From: a virus
Reading direction: 5' to 3' (one strand)
IMG/VR virus record: IMGVR_UViG_3300045988_130925
Span: 1-46,477 of that record
DNA: 46,477 nt
Below, one piece after another: positions 2,292 through 40,954 of this stretch. The position numbers and the translations under genes were made by a program. Numbering within the stretch: position 1 is the stretch's first letter; every line of letters starts with the position of its first letter. The notes under the pieces are model-generated. The model was not told where the DNA came from. It saw only the letters and a list, made by a program, of their open reading frames with translations, and did no database searches.

Positions 2292-2864
2292 ATGGAGTGC
2301 AAGGGAAAACTGATAAATGCCGCCAAAGACTGGGTATCCGGTAAGTTCCGGCTGACATTTGAAATCGAGGACGATGTATCCGGCCAGATTGACGGCATTG
2401 CGGATAAGCCTCTGCGGATTAAGGCGGCACATTGGAGAGAAAAAAGAAGCCTTGACAGCAACGCATACTATTGGGTACTACTTTCAAAACTCGCCGAAGA
2501 CCTCCGCATATCAAAACCACGGGCGCATAACATCATGCTGAGGGAATACGGTCAAGTGGAACTGGTGGACGGTTCCAGGTGCTATGTAAGAATCCCGGAC
2601 ACGGAAGAAGCCGAAAACGATGTGATGGAAAGAACGGTGTTTCACCTCCGCCCAACATCACAGGTGGTCGAAGGGAATGACGGAATCAACTACCGTACAT
2701 ACGTTGTTCTGATGGGGTCCAGCCGCTACGACACCGCTGAGATGTCGCACCTTCTGGATGGCCTGATTTACGAGTGTAAGGTACTTGGCATTGAGACAGC
2801 CACACCGGAAGAACTGGAACGGATGAAGCAGCTTTACGATCAGAACCGGAGGGAAGATGGCTAA
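2292..2864 (+). CDS. NinB/Orf-like recombination mediator (tentative)
   Basis: KRSLDSNAYYWVLLSKLAE resembles the lambda NinB RSLDQN..LW motif. Sits next to the annealase. Confidence 0.45.
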   Translation: MECKGKLINAAKDWVSGKFRLTFEIEDDVSGQIDGIADKPLRIKAAHWREKRSLDSNAYYWVLLSKLAEDLRISKPRAHNIMLREYGQVELVDGSRCYVRIPDTEEAENDVMERTVFHLRPTSQVVEGNDGINYRTYVVLMGSSRYDTAEMSHLLDGLIYECKVLGIETATPEELERMKQLYDQNRREDG

Positions 2865-3159
2865 GAGACTTTGGAGCGTTTTTACTGACGATATGGATCA
2901 CTGCTACTTTACCGGCTCATCTGCGGTAGAGCGGCACCATATCTTTGAGAGCCGACAGGGGTTTAAGAAGAAATCCGAAGCAAGAGGGTTTGTGATACCG
3001 CTGCGGCCAGACCTACACCCAAATGGGGCAAGATTCATCCGATCGGAAGAGAATTTAAAGATTGACCGGATATTGAAACAGATGGCCCAGACATACTACG
3101 AGGAGCATTACGGGAGCCGTGATGACTTCCGGCAGGAGTTTGGCAAATCATATTTATGA
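2857..3159 (+). CDS. hypothetical protein with a Cys/His motif (possible small nuclease)
   Basis: DHCYFTGSSAVERHHIF motif; located in the recombination module. Confidence 0.4.
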   Translation: MAKRLWSVFTDDMDHCYFTGSSAVERHHIFESRQGFKKKSEARGFVIPLRPDLHPNGARFIRSEENLKIDRILKQMAQTYYEEHYGSRDDFRQEFGKSYL

Positions 3160-18476: not shown

Positions 18477-19937
18477 ATAAGATTCTTCTATGATAATTAA
18501 GAGCGATAAGCTTGTGAATCAGGCTTGTCGTTCTTGTTTTATATATAACAGTTGCTTACGGGCATGTCAAGAGCAGGCGGTTTCCCGCCTGTCTTCTTAA
18601 CCCTTCTTTTGCTTACTCGGGTAAGCGTCCTTCGTACATAATGCTCAGTTCTCCATAAACCTGAGCCCAATCACGGATGGTGGTAGTCCATTTTTTCGTA
18701 GCCTCAAAAGTAGCCAGATACAAGGCCTTTAACAGGGCGGTATCGCTTGGAAATACGCTTCTCTGACGGTTCAGCTTCCGGTATGTGGAGTTCAGTGATT
18801 CGATCGCATTGGTTGTATAAATGACCTTCCGGACAGTGGTTGAAAATTTAAAAATTGGAGAAACAGCATCCCAGTTGTCTTTCCAGCGTTTCATGGAATT
18901 CGGGTATTTCGGAGTCCATTTTTCAGTTACACGTTCCAAGGCAGCCAGAGCCTTCTGCTCATCAGCGGCCTGATAGATGGTTTTTAAATCTGCAGCAAAG
19001 GCTTTTCTGTCCTTGTCCGGAACGTATTTCAGGGTGTTTCTTACCTGATGGACAATACACCTCTGGTATTCTGTTTTGGGAAACGCAGCTGAAATCGCTT
19101 CTTTAATGCCTGTAAGGCCATCGGCACAGATGATCAGGATATCTTTTACTCCGCGATTTTTCAGTTCGTTCAGGACTGACAGCCAGTATTTCGCACTTTC
19201 ATTGTCACCAATCGTAATCGTCAGGACTTCCTTTTTCCCCTCCGCATTAATGCCAAGAATAACATAGGCTGCAAGCTTACGAATGACTCCATTATCCCGC
19301 ACAGAATAGTGGATCGCATCGATGTAAAGGATTGGATATACCTCATCCAATGGGCGGTTCTGCCAATCTTCAATCTGAGGAAGTATCTTATCCGTCACAT
19401 CGGATATGAAACTTTCTGATGTTTCAAAACCATAGATATCTTCAATCGTTTCCGAGATCTGGCGAGTGGTCATTCCTTTGGCATACATAGAGATGATCTT
19501 CTGATCAATATCAGAAATATCTTTCTGACGCTTTTTCACCACCTGTGGTTCAAAGGTCGATTTCCGATCCTGTGGGACCTCGATTTCCATAGAGCCATAT
19601 CGGCTGTTTACCTGCTTGTGTTTATAACCGTTACGATAATCGTCATTGTCAGAACGCTGGGATTTCTCATATCCAAGATGGTCATCCATTTCAGCCTCCA
19701 TCATTTCTTTAATGGTGCCGCCCAGAAGATCTTTGAGTGCATCCTGGATATCTTCTGCGGTCTCGATATCGTATTCCTCGAGAAGCTGGCGGATGATGTT
19801 CCTTTTTCCTTCAGTCATTTCAACTCTGTGAACTGGTTTCTTTTGTTTTGCCATAGTAAAAGGCCCTCCTAATGATATTTATTGTATCATAGAAGGACCT
19901 TACTTAGGTTATTTTACAGAAAAAGTTTCATAGGCTC
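18453..19937 (-). mobile_element. IS256-family insertion sequence (1485 bp)
   Basis: Mutator/IS256-type transposase ORF. Imperfect terminal inverted repeats GAGAGTATGAGAAAATCTCTGTAAA / GAGCCTATGAAACTTTTTCTGTAAA. 8-bp direct repeats on both flanks. Confidence 0.85.
18613..19854 (-). CDS. IS256-family (Mutator-type) transposase
   Basis: 413 aa. N-terminal LLEEYDIETAEDIQDALKDLLGGTIKEMMEAEMDDHLGY and a central DGLTG...CIVHQ region, typical of IS256 transposases. Confidence 0.95.
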   Translation of the reverse strand: MAKQKKPVHRVEMTEGKRNIIRQLLEEYDIETAEDIQDALKDLLGGTIKEMMEAEMDDHLGYEKSQRSDNDDYRNGYKHKQVNSRYGSMEIEVPQDRKSTFEPQVVKKRQKDISDIDQKIISMYAKGMTTRQISETIEDIYGFETSESFISDVTDKILPQIEDWQNRPLDEVYPILYIDAIHYSVRDNGVIRKLAAYVILGINAEGKKEVLTITIGDNESAKYWLSVLNELKNRGVKDILIICADGLTGIKEAISAAFPKTEYQRCIVHQVRNTLKYVPDKDRKAFAADLKTIYQAADEQKALAALERVTEKWTPKYPNSMKRWKDNWDAVSPIFKFSTTVRKVIYTTNAIESLNSTYRKLNRQRSVFPSDTALLKALYLATFEATKKWTTTIRDWAQVYGELSIMYEGRLPE

Positions 19938-36370: not shown

Positions 36371-36778
36371 ATGGCAGATGCGATAGTATTGCGCGGCGGT
36401 TCTGGTTTTGATGATTCACAGCTTACAGCTACGCCGGATAAGGTCAGGAATGGGAAAACGTTTTATGGATCCGGAAGTGACAGCATACAGACCGGAACCG
36501 TTACCGAGATTGCGGCAGAAACAGTAACGCTACCTCTGAATGGATCTTACACCATACCGCAAGGAATCCATTCTGGAAACGGCAAGGTGGTACAGAGTTT
36601 GCAGACAAGCTCAGGCGGTACCGTATATCCAACCAGTGAAAAACAGACTGTGCAAACCGCGAATAAATACATGACGGACAATGTATATGTGGCACCGCTT
36701 ACCGGACTTAAGCCAGAAAACATCAAAAAAGGCGTAACTATACTTGGAGTTACCGGAACTTATGAGGGGTACAGTTGA
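36371..36778 (+). CDS. fibre-module paralog A (short)
   Basis: Shares LTATP..V..G..FYGSG.D.IQTGT ... LKPENIKKG ... GT.EGY with the next ORF. Confidence 0.5.
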   Translation: MADAIVLRGGSGFDDSQLTATPDKVRNGKTFYGSGSDSIQTGTVTEIAAETVTLPLNGSYTIPQGIHSGNGKVVQSLQTSSGGTVYPTSEKQTVQTANKYMTDNVYVAPLTGLKPENIKKGVTILGVTGTYEGYS

Positions 36779-37791
36779 TGGGAGAGTGTATTATTAAGCG
36801 TCAGGGCGGCGCAGTAGATGTTTCAGATCTTACAGCCACACCAGCAGACGTTGTGGCTGGAGAAAGGTTTTATGGATCTGGAATTGATGAAATTCAGACC
36901 GGAACTCAGAAAAATAATGGGAAAATCAGCAAAGTACTTGCAGCCAATGAAACGTATGTTATTCCGGCTGGATATGTTGATGCAGGATCTTCGGTAACTC
37001 AGAATATTGTTACAAATGGTGAAATGACGGTTAATCCGGTCGCAAACGGGTCCTTACTCAATGTATCTGGTAAGTATATGACAGGGGACATAACGGTAAA
37101 TGGAGTAGAGAATCTTAAACCCGAGAACATCAAAAAAGGGGCTTTTATCGGTTCTGTTGCTGGCACATTTGAAGGATATGTGAATACAGATCAGCTTACG
37201 CCGTATTGGTATGGTGTGTTTCCTCCTGGACAAACAGGTTTCTATGACAGCGCACTTTATCAGAATCCATCTAGTGCTGGCCCAAACTTTTCCAGCATGG
37301 TATATGCGCAGATGTCTGTTGATTGGCAATATCCAGTTGATGATGGGGCAAAAGGAAGTTGCATAAAAATAGAAGGAGAAAAAATAAAAGGTTATACGAC
37401 TTATGTTGCTCCATATATAACATTTAATAAGCAAATAAATATATCCGAATGTAAGTCTATAACAATATGCTATACTCTTCCATCAAGAGCTTATGACCAG
37501 ACATTGTCGACACTCGTATTGTCGCAAAATAAGCCAGGAACTTTTGATACAGGAACGGTATACGAACCAACTCCTTCCCATGATGCTCTTGTCGTTGCAT
37601 CTGCGTTAGGTTCATATGAAGTTTTTCATTTGGATTACTCAAACGGTTCGGATGAATGGATTGTAAAAACTTTTACAATTAAAAACCCGTTTAAATACAA
37701 TTACATTTCTTTTGTTCCGTTTAGAATTCCTGCAGATAATGGTACAAGCCCATTTGTATCAAAAGTTCGATACATAAAGTTTAATAAATAA
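36775..37791 (+). CDS. fibre-module paralog B with an added ~200-aa C-terminal domain (receptor-binding candidate)
   Basis: The N-terminal 135 aa are paralogous to 36371-36778. Confidence 0.5.
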   Translation: MMGECIIKRQGGAVDVSDLTATPADVVAGERFYGSGIDEIQTGTQKNNGKISKVLAANETYVIPAGYVDAGSSVTQNIVTNGEMTVNPVANGSLLNVSGKYMTGDITVNGVENLKPENIKKGAFIGSVAGTFEGYVNTDQLTPYWYGVFPPGQTGFYDSALYQNPSSAGPNFSSMVYAQMSVDWQYPVDDGAKGSCIKIEGEKIKGYTTYVAPYITFNKQINISECKSITICYTLPSRAYDQTLSTLVLSQNKPGTFDTGTVYEPTPSHDALVVASALGSYEVFHLDYSNGSDEWIVKTFTIKNPFKYNYISFVPFRIPADNGTSPFVSKVRYIKFNK

Positions 37792-37802
37792 AGGAGATCA
37801 TT

Positions 37803-38399
37803 ATGAGCAACGAAAACGTATCTTTACCAGTAGCGGAAGCACTTGCATCAGCACTTGCAAAGATAGAAGCATATGTCCCCACCGAGTACGTTGATAACTC
37901 AGAACCGGACATTGACGCTGAACACCTCAATCACGCAGAACAGGGCATCATGAGAGTGACGAACCTGTTAAATGCTGCTGTTGATGTTATACAGGGCCAG
38001 GAAAGCCGCCTTTCGGATGCTGAAACAAAGGTAGGAACCGCGGCGCTGACCGGCGGTATGACAGATTTATCCAGTGGTCTTAATAAGTTAAATAGTGATT
38101 TTTTTAATAGGATTGATGCCACAAAAATATCTTTATTAACACAGCCGAGTGGAACAACAATACGGCAAAAAATTGAAAACTGCCAAAAAGGTACATTGTG
38201 CTCATGGGCACATAATCCTAGCGAATTATATAATCCCACTGGGAAAAACGGTACATGGAGTTTCTTAATTGTAAGAGCCGACAAAGAAATGTATACTATT
38301 TGCCTTGCTTGTGAAGGCGGCAGTAAACTCTACATATATTCATATAACGCAAATGCTTGGTATGGAATGGATGGCACTATTGTACGGCAATTTAACTGA
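37803..38399 (+). CDS. tail fibre protein with a potentially switchable C-terminus
   Basis: DIDAEHLNHAEQGI motif typical of fibres. Carries the left arm of a 13-bp inverted repeat at 38089-38101. Confidence 0.55.
   Translation: MSNENVSLPVAEALASALAKIEAYVPTEYVDNSEPDIDAEHLNHAEQGIMRVTNLLNAAVDVIQGQESRLSDAETKVGTAALTGGMTDLSSGLNKLNSDFFNRIDATKISLLTQPSGTTIRQKIENCQKGTLCSWAHNPSELYNPTGKNGTWSFLIVRADKEMYTICLACEGGSKLYIYSYNANAWYGMDGTIVRQFN
38089..38101 (+). repeat. left arm of a perfect 13-bp inverted repeat TAAATAGTGATTT
   Basis: The reverse complement is present at 38711-38723. Encodes LNSD in frame. Confidence 0.9.
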
Positions 38400-38403
38400 C
38401 TTG

Positions 38404-38739
38404 TTATCTGAAAATTAATACAAAATTAGCAGTCAGATCTCCGTTAAAATTGGCGTTAGCAAGAACCGTCACAGATGTTCCGTTAAATGTACAAGATACA
38501 AATATATCCTTATCCACTCCAGTCGATTTATGTATACTTGCGACAGCTGGACAAACAACTGAATATTTTGTTGTTAGATTAATATAATTCCAACCATCTT
38601 TTATACCAGAAATCGCAATAGTGAGTACAACTACATTTCCATATTTATATGCATAAGTGACTTTTGTATTTGCCGGAGCTGTAAATTGATCGACAACACT
38701 CTTGACATTTAAATCACTATTTAGGGGCTGATGGATCAA
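38404..38739 (-). CDS. start-less alternative fibre C-terminal cassette (silent in this orientation)
   Basis: Only a TTG start and no RBS. Begins ...PLNSDL at the inverted repeat. Beta-rich 111 aa, tail-to-tail with the fibre gene. Confidence 0.55.
   Translation of the reverse strand: MIHQPLNSDLNVKSVVDQFTAPANTKVTYAYKYGNVVVLTIAISGIKDGWNYINLTTKYSVVCPAVASIHKSTGVDKDIFVSCTFNGTSVTVLANANFNGDLTANFVLIFR
38711..38723 (-). repeat. right arm of the 13-bp inverted repeat
   Basis: AAATCACTATTTA is the reverse complement of 38089-38101. Encodes LNSD in the minus ORF in the same codon register. Confidence 0.9.
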
Positions 38740-38797
38740 ACGGAAAGTATATTAAGGGCTTCTGGGTGTCGAAAAGACGATAAAATTTTTCTTTCAT

Positions 38798-39211
38798 TTG
38801 GAGGTGAGAACAACGATTCATATAACAATTGGATATGATTGTGGAGATTCCTGCTATTGTGACAAAGCAAAAATTTGTAAACATCGTGGCAGATATAAAT
38901 TCCACAATTTTTCAGTTAGCTTGCACACGTTCTTTGAATACAGACTACATATTAAACTTCCATATTTAATTTATATAGGACAAAAATGGGAAAGATTGAG
39001 TGGAACTGACAAATGTCCTTATCATAAAAGTAGAAATTATACTTGCCATGATTGTAAATTTGTTGGTGGAGAATTACTTAGGGATTGTTATTGTACAGAA
39101 AGGACGAATACAAATTATAAGGATTTGAAGCCTGATATTGAGACAAAAGATTGGGGCAAGCAATGCGCTTATTTTGAAAAATGTGAATGGGCAGATGACT
39201 ATTTACGGTGA
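38798..39211 (+). CDS. Cys-rich hypothetical protein (AT-rich moron region)
   Basis: 15 Cys in 137 aa (CGDSCYCDKAKIC, CPYH, CHDC, CYC, CAYFEKC). Start uncertain (TTG/GTG only). Confidence 0.4.
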   Translation: MEVRTTIHITIGYDCGDSCYCDKAKICKHRGRYKFHNFSVSLHTFFEYRLHIKLPYLIYIGQKWERLSGTDKCPYHKSRNYTCHDCKFVGGELLRDCYCTERTNTNYKDLKPDIETKDWGKQCAYFEKCEWADDYLR

Positions 39212-39278
39212 TATTCAAAATGTGAAAAAGCATTACTATGTATATATCAATATCTTACAGAAAGAAAGGAAACATCTT

Positions 39279-39554
39279 ATGGAAAAAGAAATGAACATCC
39301 AGGAACCGTTACACCGCAACTGTGCACCTCATGATGCAGCACACTGTGATATCAACGATCATCATAACAACGCGAAAAACGGCTTTGATGCTGAGGCTGA
39401 TGACTGCGGCCATACTGTGCAGTCCGGCCCTGGAGTTGGAATTCCGAAAGGTGCAGGCCATCCGGTTAATGGAACTGTTGTAGCTGGATTTACTCCAACC
39501 AGCGCTAAGGGGAATAAAGATAAAGATCAGAAGCACGGGCCTGGTGCAAAATAA
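39279..39554 (+). CDS. small His/Gly/Asp-rich hypothetical protein
   Basis: ATG 39279 after AAGGAAACATCTT; followed by a strong hairpin. Confidence 0.45.
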   Translation: MEKEMNIQEPLHRNCAPHDAAHCDINDHHNNAKNGFDAEADDCGHTVQSGPGVGIPKGAGHPVNGTVVAGFTPTSAKGNKDKDQKHGPGAK

Positions 39555-39640: not shown

Positions 39641-39666
39641 TTCGTGTTGCATTTCGTGTTGCATAG
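39641..39666 (+). repeat. 26-bp direct repeat copy 1 (TTCGTGTTGCATTTCGTGTTGCATAG), arm-type site candidate
   Basis: 25/26 identical to 39846-39871. Internally two GTGTTGCAT units. Confidence 0.8.
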
Positions 39667-39727
39667 TATTTAAAGATGTATCATTTTTGATATATTTATG
39701 CGACAAGTGATAAATACTTATAACACC

Positions 39728-39770
39728 AAAAGCCGCATAAAACCTAAGCTCTAGGTTCTATGCGGCTTTT
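39728..39770. terminator. long hairpin (about 18-bp stem) with A and T tracts, bidirectional terminator
   Basis: AAAAGCCGCATAAAACCTA-loop-TAGGTTCTATGCGGCTTTT. Confidence 0.6.
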
Positions 39771-39785
39771 GGTGATTTTGGACCC

Positions 39786-39810
39786 ACAGGTTCAAGTCCT
39801 GTTGCCCGCA
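39786..39810 (+). other. 3-prime fragment of a tRNA gene (T arm plus acceptor strand); attP core candidate
   Basis: ACAGG-TTCAAGT-CCTGT then TGCCCGC-A. No matching 5-prime acceptor upstream. Confidence 0.6.
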
Positions 39811-39829
39811 CTGAAAATTTGGCTTAAAA

Positions 39830-40954
39830 TCAGGACTTTTCGGAGTTCGTGTTGCATTTTGTGTTGCATAGCTCCGAAAAGTAGTCATTAGCCTTACGAT
39901 TCATAGCTTCTTCTTTGCTCTCCATAACATGCCGATAAATCTGCTTTAACACTCCATCATTTCCCCACCCGCCGCGCTGCATGATGTATGCGTCCGGTAT
40001 TCCTATCGCGTGCTGAATGGATGCGCAGTAATGGCGCAAATCGTGAAAACGGAAGTGAGGTATTCCGGCTTCTGCCAGTATGTCAGAAAAGCAGTTTGAT
40101 ATCTGATATGGCATTAGTCCGACCATATTTTTGCCAGTTCTATTTTTTAGTTTTTGAATAACGAAATCGGGAAAAGTTATGTATCGGTCCCCGGCATAGC
40201 TTTTAGTTTTTTTATACACCCATTCGTGGCTGTCATTCAGCACCATAGCATATTCCACATACACTACATTCCCTACGACATGATCGGATGCAAGCGCGCA
40301 TATCTCGCTGCGCCGCATCGGTCCGAATGCAGCCAGAAGAACAGGCAGCTCCATGTCTGTATCCTTTACCGCCGCCATAAGGCGCTTCACATCATCATCA
40401 GAGGGCACATAGAGCTTTTGCCGTACCTTTGCCGGGAGCTTTGTTTTAACCGCGAAATCCGGCCTATAAACGGTCAATACGGATGTCAAAAGACCGTGCA
40501 TGTTTCTAACGCTCTTCGGTGAGTGCGTCAGAGCTTCCCGGTTAATTTCTTCCTGTATGTCCTCTTGCGTGATGGTGTAGATATCCATATCCATGAGATT
40601 TGCCAGGTCCTTTTTTCTGGACCGTTTGTATTCACGTATGGTGGACGGAGACAGGACAGAGGAGCGGAGCGCTATATAGCTATCCATAGCTTGGCCGAGC
40701 GTCATCTTTTCTTTTTCCGGTTCCTCTCGTTTGATAAGTTCTTTGCTTGCTGCCCAGATGGCAGCTTCCCGCTCAACATCCCGTTTCCCTTTTGGTGTAG
40801 GGTCATCGTTTGTGAATGATTTGTAGATTCTCTTTTTCTTCGGCTTGCCTTTATCATCCAGAACCGGCTCCCCGTTCTTATCTCGTACATCCTCAAATCT
40901 GTCAAACACCTGGACTCTCCATGATCCAGATGGTAATTTTTTTGCTTTTGCCAT
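39830..40954 (-). CDS. int: tyrosine integrase
   Basis: 374 aa. C-terminal catalytic region ...RRSEICAL... HDLRHYCAS ... GGWGNDGVLKQIYRH (R, H-x-x-R, Y). Adjacent to the att-like site. Confidence 0.95.
   Translation of the reverse strand: MAKAKKLPSGSWRVQVFDRFEDVRDKNGEPVLDDKGKPKKKRIYKSFTNDDPTPKGKRDVEREAAIWAASKELIKREEPEKEKMTLGQAMDSYIALRSSVLSPSTIREYKRSRKKDLANLMDMDIYTITQEDIQEEINREALTHSPKSVRNMHGLLTSVLTVYRPDFAVKTKLPAKVRQKLYVPSDDDVKRLMAAVKDTDMELPVLLAAFGPMRRSEICALASDHVVGNVVYVEYAMVLNDSHEWVYKKTKSYAGDRYITFPDFVIQKLKNRTGKNMVGLMPYQISNCFSDILAEAGIPHFRFHDLRHYCASIQHAIGIPDAYIMQRGGWGNDGVLKQIYRHVMESKEEAMNRKANDYFSELCNTKCNTNSEKS
39846..39871 (+). repeat. 26-bp direct repeat copy 2, overlaps the integrase 3-prime end
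   Basis: TTCGTGTTGCATTTTGTGTTGCATAG. Confidence 0.8.

Follow-up and report, generated by a model that had tools for sequence, protein, structure and literature searches.

An invertible tail fiber tip in gut phages that encode no dedicated recombinase

How does a temperate phage exchange the tip of its tail fiber when it encodes no enzyme dedicated to the task? This question is raised by a locus in IMGVR_UViG_3300045988_130925, a virus record of 46,477 nucleotides (nt) whose whole length we call the window. The final gene of its tail module, at 37803-38399 on the plus strand, encodes a distal tail fiber or receptor-binding protein of 198 amino acids (aa) in its present isoform. It lies tail-to-tail with an open reading frame (ORF) at 38404-38739 on the minus strand, and 4 nt (38400-38403) separate the two stops. 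A sequence of 13 base pairs (bp), TAAATAGTGATTT, occurs within the fiber gene at 38089-38101 on the plus strand (site 1; 14 bp counting the preceding Y at 38088), and its exact reverse complement stands at 38711-38723 on the minus strand (site 2); the window contains no further exact copy. With the extra base the site reads YTAAATAGTGATTT (13-14 bp), and the flanks beyond it are unrelated. The first T of the repeat falls at codon position 2 in both ORFs ((38089-37803) mod 3 = 1 and (38739-38723) mod 3 = 1), and both sites translate as Leu-Asn-Ser-Asp in a common register.

The two sites divide the locus into a constant region and an invertible segment. The constant region, aa 1-95 of the fiber (37803-38088, plus strand), is 89-100% conserved in relatives that have unrelated C-termini, and aa 96-99 (LNSD) are encoded at the site itself. 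The segment between the sites (38102-38710; 609 bp) carries two convergent tip cassettes. Tip A (FFNRIDATK...VRQFN; 38102-38399, plus strand; 99 aa and a stop) is in the expressed state, and tip B (LNVKSVVDQ...LIFR; 38404-38710, minus strand; 102 aa and a stop) is silent. The minus-strand ORF as a whole spans 111 aa from a TTG start. Reading the sequence directly, we found no Shine-Dalgarno-like purine run before this TTG, and promoter-like sites for tip B were not above background. GC content is 0.46-0.49 over 37800-38099 and 0.33-0.40 over 38100-39300, with the drop at the left arm. An earlier note made from the letters of the window alone had described the two complementary arms, the tail-to-tail ORFs, their shared Leu-Asn-Ser-Asp register, a minus-strand ORF with only a TTG start and no purine-rich ribosome binding site, and a shift to AT-rich sequence exactly at the left repeat. 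Coordinates, position arithmetic, sequence reading and GC profile bore out each of these points.

The same note had predicted that inverting 38089-38723 would swap the two C-termini in frame, and public assemblies do contain the inverted fusion. We searched public proteins with the predicted product, the N-terminal 99 aa joined to the minus-strand tip, and seven clusters, every one of them exactly 201 aa long, matched it at 95-96% identity with 100% of the query covered. Tip B is expressed as the fiber tip in P0001-P0007 and in the loci L001 and L002, and in both of these loci tip A is silent on the minus strand. Tip A is expressed in 13 protein clusters, to which one FFNKIDVT variant can be added. 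Near-identical N-terminal haplotypes carry either tip, flipped in seven clusters and unflipped in 13. The suggestion that related phages might join the same N-terminus to either C-terminus was thus answered by finding both fusions.

L001, a 24-kb Logan contig from SRR33441798, has the gene order of the window and the same integrase type (374 aa). There the N-terminus continues into LNVKSVVDQ..., and FFNRIDATK... is the silent tip, placed on the minus strand after the same 'MIHQPLNSD' leader as in the window. Window positions 38102-38710 differ from the reverse complement of L001 6300-6908 by 2 mismatches in 609 (99.7% identity, compared with 29% in direct orientation), and the junction sequences outside the arms are unchanged; the breakpoint lies inside the site. 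A closer pair is formed by L001 and L193, a metagenome contig recovered in a single metagenome scan (2 matches) from a different sample. To the left, 922 nt match at 100% identity, as do 1092 nt to the right, and the central 635 nt of L193, both arms included, lie in the opposite orientation with 1 mismatch; here too the breakpoint lies inside the site. The two contigs represent the same phage from two samples, differing only by the flip. Taken together, the comparisons show a precise and recent inversion, and we conclude that the segment almost certainly inverts in nature.

Three other origins of this pattern were considered and rejected. Misassembly at the repeat would be an unlikely source of the junctions, since assembly k-mers are typically longer than the 13-bp arms, and both junctions recur in independent samples and sources; an assembly artifact was rejected on these two grounds. 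A module swap by homologous recombination was rejected because the 609-bp segment is an exact reverse complement between identical flanks. By itself, the 13-bp repeat is within chance. In order-1 Markov sequences with the size and dinucleotide make-up of the window, perfect 13-bp inverted repeats within 1 kb occurred at a mean of 0.66 per random window, and 42% of the random sequences had at least one; an unrelated perfect 14-bp inverted repeat lies in the same 3.5 kb, about 500 bp upstream. The case therefore rests on comparative evidence, on which a chance repeat was rejected though the repeat alone is not significant.

This comparative evidence extends well beyond a single pair of tips. The fiber N-terminus is shared by 423 homologues in a protein search, and in the best 120 of these it is followed by at least 35 unrelated C-terminal families, with divergence always beginning right after L(N/Y)S(D/N/S). 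The junction DNA of the close relatives examined has the consensus YTAWATAGTRATTT, and the flanks on the cassette side are unrelated. In all of these relatives but L007, a second, inverted copy of the site follows 350-910 bp further downstream and heads a silent tip that has no start. Of the 19 tabulated relatives, 17 have this tip whole and in frame with their site; L015 keeps a 12-aa remnant, and none was found in L007. The flank at the silent site reads TATCCCCG or GTCCCCA in relatives, GTCCCCA also being present in L039, a locus that bears a recombinase, and the outer flank of site 2 in the window, CAGCCCC, is not fiber-coding. A second tip pair, LNGFHVYA and LKNMWSLS, likewise occurs in both orientations (L132-134 versus L138-141, L143 and L010). 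The loci thus have short inverted repeats at each cassette boundary that are conserved on one side only, both orientations with breakpoints in the repeats, and a constant N-terminus joined in frame to alternative C-terminal cassettes.

The tips also appear to travel. L194, a contig from ERZ772805, carries the FFNRIDATK tip on a different fiber shaft (~2400-3118), together with the last ~25 aa of the constant region, and in P0008 LSVKSVVDQ is joined at '...NSD' to an unrelated shaft. The presence of the same tips on unrelated shafts indicates that tips move between fiber families at the junction. In addition, the window and L001 differ by 7-10% in their tail genes, yet they share a near-identical block (2 differences) from 38043 to ~39300, whose left edge is at most 46 nt from site 1 and whose right edge falls inside a small ORF at ~39300. 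This block looks like a recently exchanged module of the tips and the Cys-rich ORF that follows them, and its position suggests that the site region is also where tip modules pass between phages.

Such loci could be relics of an ancestral shufflon that no current enzyme acts upon, with rare homology-driven or illegitimate recombination at the 13-bp repeat, by host RecA or a phage annealing protein, producing the occasional flip. No recombinase gene is present in cis, and some relatives look degenerate: besides L015 with its remnant and L007 without a silent tip, L041 resembles a deletion product. In one relative, L017, the homologous arm is much longer and could allow homologous recombination to act. 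A repeat of 13 bp, however, falls far short of what homologous recombination requires to be efficient. The flip between L193 and L001 left 2.6 kb otherwise unchanged, and flips occurred in two tip pairs. Both orientation states are about equally common, and silent tips and the exact core have been kept intact beside unrelated flanks, which argues for selection on a working site. We consider a relic of this kind improbable.

A candidate for the working enzyme comes from sister prophages. Among the tips of more distant fiber relatives (L039, L038, L128-131, L004 and L005) lies an ORF of 331-354 aa, and the recombinase-bearing loci also include L146-175. These genes make up a family of dedicated XerC/D-like tyrosine recombinases that we call rec348. 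The proteins have a PF00589 (Phage_integrase) catalytic domain and a SAM-like core-binding domain, without an arm-binding N-terminus, and their best PDB match is XerD (E = 6e-25). Another locus, L019, carries a cousin that is 31% identical. The family is present in ~33 Lachnospiraceae species, including Hungatella, Lacrimispora, Blautia and several 'Clostridium' (profile scan; the genome scan for the recombinase relied on two peptide patterns only). Around rec348 genes, TAAAT[AG]G[TC][GA]A sites are enriched, with 42 observed versus 7 expected. Sites of the Hungatella/Lacrimispora branch have the form ...ACTNART TAAATAGTGATTT A..., in which the 13-bp core is identical to that of the window. 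This identical core is found in several of the recombinase-bearing loci, among them both prophages of H. hathewayi DSM 13479 (L149/L150) and L152, L155 and L160, and the L039 site matches its first 10 bp. Between the two H. hathewayi DSM 13479 prophages, one segment flanked by sites is inverted. By shared sequence, the site family of the window thus appears tied to a XerC/D-like type of tyrosine recombinase.

The best matches of the rec348 recombinase among annotated phages are at most 35% identical. In Clostridium phage phiCp-D (L181, 21639-22616) and Terrisporobacter phage TPELB_ph1 (L182, 17645-18640), a XerD-like gene annotated as an 'integrase' is located between the last tail gene and the holin, and TPELB_ph1 encodes another integrase at a different place. 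The XerD-like genes share 29-31% identity with the fiber-shufflon recombinase and might have a comparable role.

No such enzyme was found in the window. A tblastn search of the window for a rec348 homologue returned nothing better than E > 1, and a dedicated tyrosine recombinase gene of this type, adjoining or inside the shufflon, was missing from the ~38 loci of the close clade as well. Pfam scans of 40 window ORFs, which included all plus-strand ORFs of at least 150 aa but the 886-aa one, detected two recombinases, the tyrosine integrase at 39830-40954 and an IS256/Mutator transposase at 18613-19854, and no serine recombinase or resolvase domain. A Hin query gave only matches with E >= 0.33 in a six-frame tblastn of the window. 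Neither search revealed a serine invertase hidden in the window. The earlier note's statement that no invertase is adjacent, and that the only recombinases of the window are the integrase and the IS256 transposase, held up. It had gone on to propose an enzyme supplied by the host or one yet unrecognized, with the integrase or the Cys-rich ORF as candidates. A host-supplied enzyme survives as the best reading, narrowed to a recombinase family that other prophages of this bacterial group carry, the integrase is rated unlikely, and the Cys-rich ORF has been dropped.

Because neither the phage nor its close clade has such a dedicated recombinase gene, inversion is most likely catalyzed in trans. 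Recombination between the two inverted 13-bp sites, each encoding Leu-Asn-Ser-Asp in one frame, would join the constant 99-aa N-terminus to tip A, as at present, or to tip B, and would leave the unused tip start-less on the opposite strand. The sites would belong to a family of fiber tip shufflons in Lachnospiraceae prophages that is driven elsewhere by the armless XerC/D-like recombinase, and in the lysogen the recombinase of a co-resident prophage would act on them. A trans-supplied recombinase fits all the observations, and we favor, by a modest measure, an orphan tyrosine-type switch that is flipped in trans by a member of the rec348 family. Consistent with this, a Clostridium sp. OM02-18AC-like genome from the same bacterial group as the rec348 carriers harbors an integrated window-type prophage. 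We infer which enzyme acts, that it does so in trans, and that the switch affects host range.

Several observations weigh against this proposal. We found no genome or sample with both a window-type phage and a rec348-family recombinase, and the representative genome of the identified host is not among the recombinase matches, in a scan that used two peptide patterns only. The leftward extension ACTNART of Hungatella-type sites is absent at site 2 of the window, so a different specificity is possible. As to the inversion itself, no break at the arms was seen in short contigs. Any change of host range, finally, is read from the position of the gene and from weak structural matches to models of low confidence (predicted local distance difference test, pLDDT, 50-58).

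The obvious enzyme within the phage is its own lambda-type integrase (39830-40954, minus strand; 374 aa; PF00589, phrog_1), which might invert the segment at core-only sites in the fiber gene besides integrating the phage. It is the sole tyrosine recombinase in the window and lies 1.1 kb downstream of the fiber gene, convergent with it, much as rci in R64 is convergent with the gene it switches. Moreover, the isogenic pair L001/L193 belongs to the lineage with this integrase (int-374) and has no other recombinase in view. However, three integrase types of 360, 374 and 412 aa (int-360, int-374 and int-412) interchange behind the same fiber sites. They have ~70 N-terminal residues, the arm-binding part, in common, and int-374 and int-412 are only 34-35% identical overall, so that identical sites precede quite different integrases. 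The attachment sites also differ from the inversion sites. In the window, the attP region (39641-39871) consists of arm-type repeats at 39641-39666 and 39846-39871 around a tRNA-3'-like core at ~39775-39815. For each of the three integrase types the attP core is a different tRNA 3' fragment, and none resembles TAAATAGTGATTT; in L042, an integrated int-412 relative, the prophage and phage forms cease to match exactly where the tRNA ends at its 3' side. Lambda-type integrases need arm-type repeats, and these occur only at attP: the repeats CGTGTTGCAT are confined to 39643-39664 and 39848-39869, those flanking the three attP types begin TTCGTGTTGCAT, and the inversion sites have neither a core resembling attP or attB nor arm-type sites nearby. 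Finally, where sister phages combine an integrase with the sites, they encode a dedicated recombinase as well. Given the three integrase types, the tRNA-derived attP cores and the restriction of arm repeats to attP, we consider the integrase unlikely to be the enzyme. The second of the tandem arm-type repeats, TTCGTGTTGCATTTYGTGTTGCATAG, falls within the 3' end of the integrase ORF, where it supplies the codons for the C-terminal CNTKCNT of the protein.

A third copy of the site in int-360 relatives bears on the same alternative. It is found in L009 (6709-6722), L014 (6551-6564), L011 (6543), L013 (6542), L033 (6536) and L035 (6521), in the orientation of site 1 and overlapping the integrase stop codon, a position that would favor a link with the integrase. 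Together with site 2 it brackets, in inverted orientation, the small conserved ORF, a skipping-rope RNA and attP. The third copy is not the attP core, a possibility that was rejected because it lies outside both the arm repeats and the tRNA-like core. If an arm-binding, tRNA-targeting integrase also flipped the tip at core-only sites, with the third int-360 site as part of the circuit, one integrase would govern lysogeny and host-range switching together; we regard this fuller version as slightly less likely still.

The phage might instead encode a recombinase of a kind that we do not recognize, such as the Cys-rich ORF at 38798-39211 (plus strand; 137 aa). Many ORFs of the window have no family match, this one among them (Pfam and PHROG), and a small ORF at 39280-39554 (plus strand; MEKEMNIQEPLHR...), likewise without a match in either database, adjoins site 2 in all relatives. 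But the Cys-rich ORF is missing from L132-134, L010, L002 and L042-47, all of which keep the sites, and L132-134 and L010 show the two orientations of the second tip pair. We therefore rejected it as the enzyme and regard it as an accessory gene that is not part of the switch. The small ORF, 91-138 aa long across relatives and rich in His, Asp, Gly and Pro in translation, does not look like an enzyme; no ORF but the integrase resembles a serine or tyrosine recombinase, and a known type of recombinase has already been linked to the site family. A phage-encoded enzyme of this kind is very unlikely.

The earlier note had likened the locus to the Mu G, P1 C and p15B Min host-range switches and to the R64 shufflon. 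The second comparison stands, and the first holds for function alone. Judged by sites and relatives, the switch belongs with the tyrosine recombinase shufflons of the Rin and R64 type, not with Gin and Cin. In the R64/IncI1 shufflon, the tyrosine recombinase Rci acts on 19-bp sfx repeats to exchange PilV tips over multiple segments. Both systems switch an adhesin tip by inversion between short repeats conserved on one side, and in both a tyrosine recombinase gene lies convergent downstream; R64 differs in that a plasmid pilus adhesin, with a dedicated adjacent Rci and several segments, takes the place of the phage fiber. The serine switches use a serine recombinase, 26-bp sites of the gix, cix or hix type with a 2-bp central overlap, and a Fis-dependent enhancer. 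No serine recombinase gene was found in the window, and its inversion site is presumably unlike gix, cix and hix. What these systems share with the window is the choice of alternative tail fiber C-termini by inversion, seen in Mu G/Gin, P1 C/Cin, p15B Min and e14 P/Pin (PMC6109161, PMC12529663).

The closest counterpart is the Rin shufflon of Bifidobacterium prophages, in which an armless tyrosine invertase acts at an 11-bp asymmetric repeat, rix, to exchange tips of 95-100 aa (Mavrich et al. 2018, PMC6109161); it is also found in Eggerthella prophages (PMC8778435). In both systems, tips of ~95-100 aa alternate on the constant N-terminus of a receptor-binding protein, the constant/variable junction is marked by short asymmetric repeats (11 bp in rix, 13-14 bp here), and an armless XerC/D-like enzyme, found in sister phages in our case, is distinct from the lambda-type integrase. 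The differences are that the rin gene adjoins its cassettes whereas the clade of the window has no such gene, that the Rin repeat is TTCCCTAACCC where ours is TAAATAGTGATTT (Rin being compared by its description), and that Rin hosts are Actinobacteria whereas those here are Firmicutes (Lachnospiraceae). The window, moreover, has one invertible segment with two tips. Within the literature that we searched, we found no description of a Lachnospiraceae phage version of such a fiber tip shufflon.

Action in trans has precedents among these enzyme classes. Gin, Cin, Pin and Hin cross-complement one another in trans, which is a precedent for an enzyme supplied from another element, and RecV of Clostridioides difficile is a trans-acting tyrosine invertase that flips several unlinked switches. 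Tsr15 of Bacteroides fragilis is another trans-acting tyrosine invertase (cited in PMC6109161). Likened by mode of action, RecV and Tsr15 resemble the proposed system in that one tyrosine recombinase works on short inverted repeats far from its own gene in gut anaerobes. They differ in being chromosomal and in mostly flipping promoters of cell-surface genes rather than coding cassettes.

What the exchanged tips do is suggested by their setting. The fiber protein has a weak PHROG match to 'minor tail protein' (E = 0.008), and PDB sequence searches gave no match. Structures of both fused fibers, one of the checks proposed in the earlier note, were predicted and came out poor, with pLDDT 50 for the present 198-aa isoform and 58 for the other. 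In these AlphaFold models the N-terminus is helical, tip A is mixed alpha/beta and tip B is an all-beta domain, for which Foldseek returned weak matches to tail fibers, including the R2 pyocin fiber (E = 6e-3) and several BFVD 'tail fiber' entries. Because of the position of the gene and these weak structural matches, we infer that the tip has a role in receptor binding and host range.

What sets this system apart is its orphan state. A whole clade of gut phages, widely sampled, has retained the sites along with the paired tips and flips them, yet does not encode the recombinase. The retention of a switch without its enzyme suggests that phages can depend on the recombinase of other prophages in the same cell; if this is true, polylysogeny would shape phage host range. 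Tail fiber tips set which bacteria a phage attacks, and host range is a central unknown for the largely uncultured Lachnospiraceae phages of the gut. The consensus YTAWATAGTRATTT, which encodes L-N/Y-S-D/N, offers a simple sequence handle by which metagenomes can be searched for receptor-binding tips and for the silent tips that alternate with them. Hungatella hathewayi DSM 13479, which is cultivable and has two complete copies, makes the system directly testable.

The window as a whole is a complete temperate siphovirus-like genome of ~46 kb, and no close relatives were found among annotated phages. In the Pfam scans, its packaging and structural genes comprise the small and large terminase, minor capsid proteins, a scaffold and a Gp15-like tail protein. 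The 886-aa ORF is followed by a series of tail genes up to 38399, a short accessory region, the minus-strand integrase and a lysogeny module of the CI/Cro type. The IS256/Mutator-family transposase (18613-19854, minus strand; PF00872, E = 3e-120) sits within the head-morphogenesis module.

Two further features lie close to the fiber locus. Directly upstream, a 338-aa tail gene (36775-37791, plus strand) is hyperdivergent in its C-terminal third, with 24-53 differences per 100 nt relative to L001, and this stretch, especially 37200-37770, contains a perfect 14-bp inverted repeat (37538-37551 and 37755-37768). This C-terminal third may be a second variable receptor-binding module, or the 14-bp repeat may be due to chance. 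Downstream, between the small conserved ORF at 39280-39554 and attP, lies a skipping-rope RNA (Rfam RF02924; 39560-39640, plus strand) whose 66 bits exceed the gathering score of 36.7 (E = 3e-15). The same element, of ~73 nt, is 90-92% conserved in the unrelated 100-kb Enterocloster phages CB473P1-3 and CB457P2, and nothing else of this region is conserved there.

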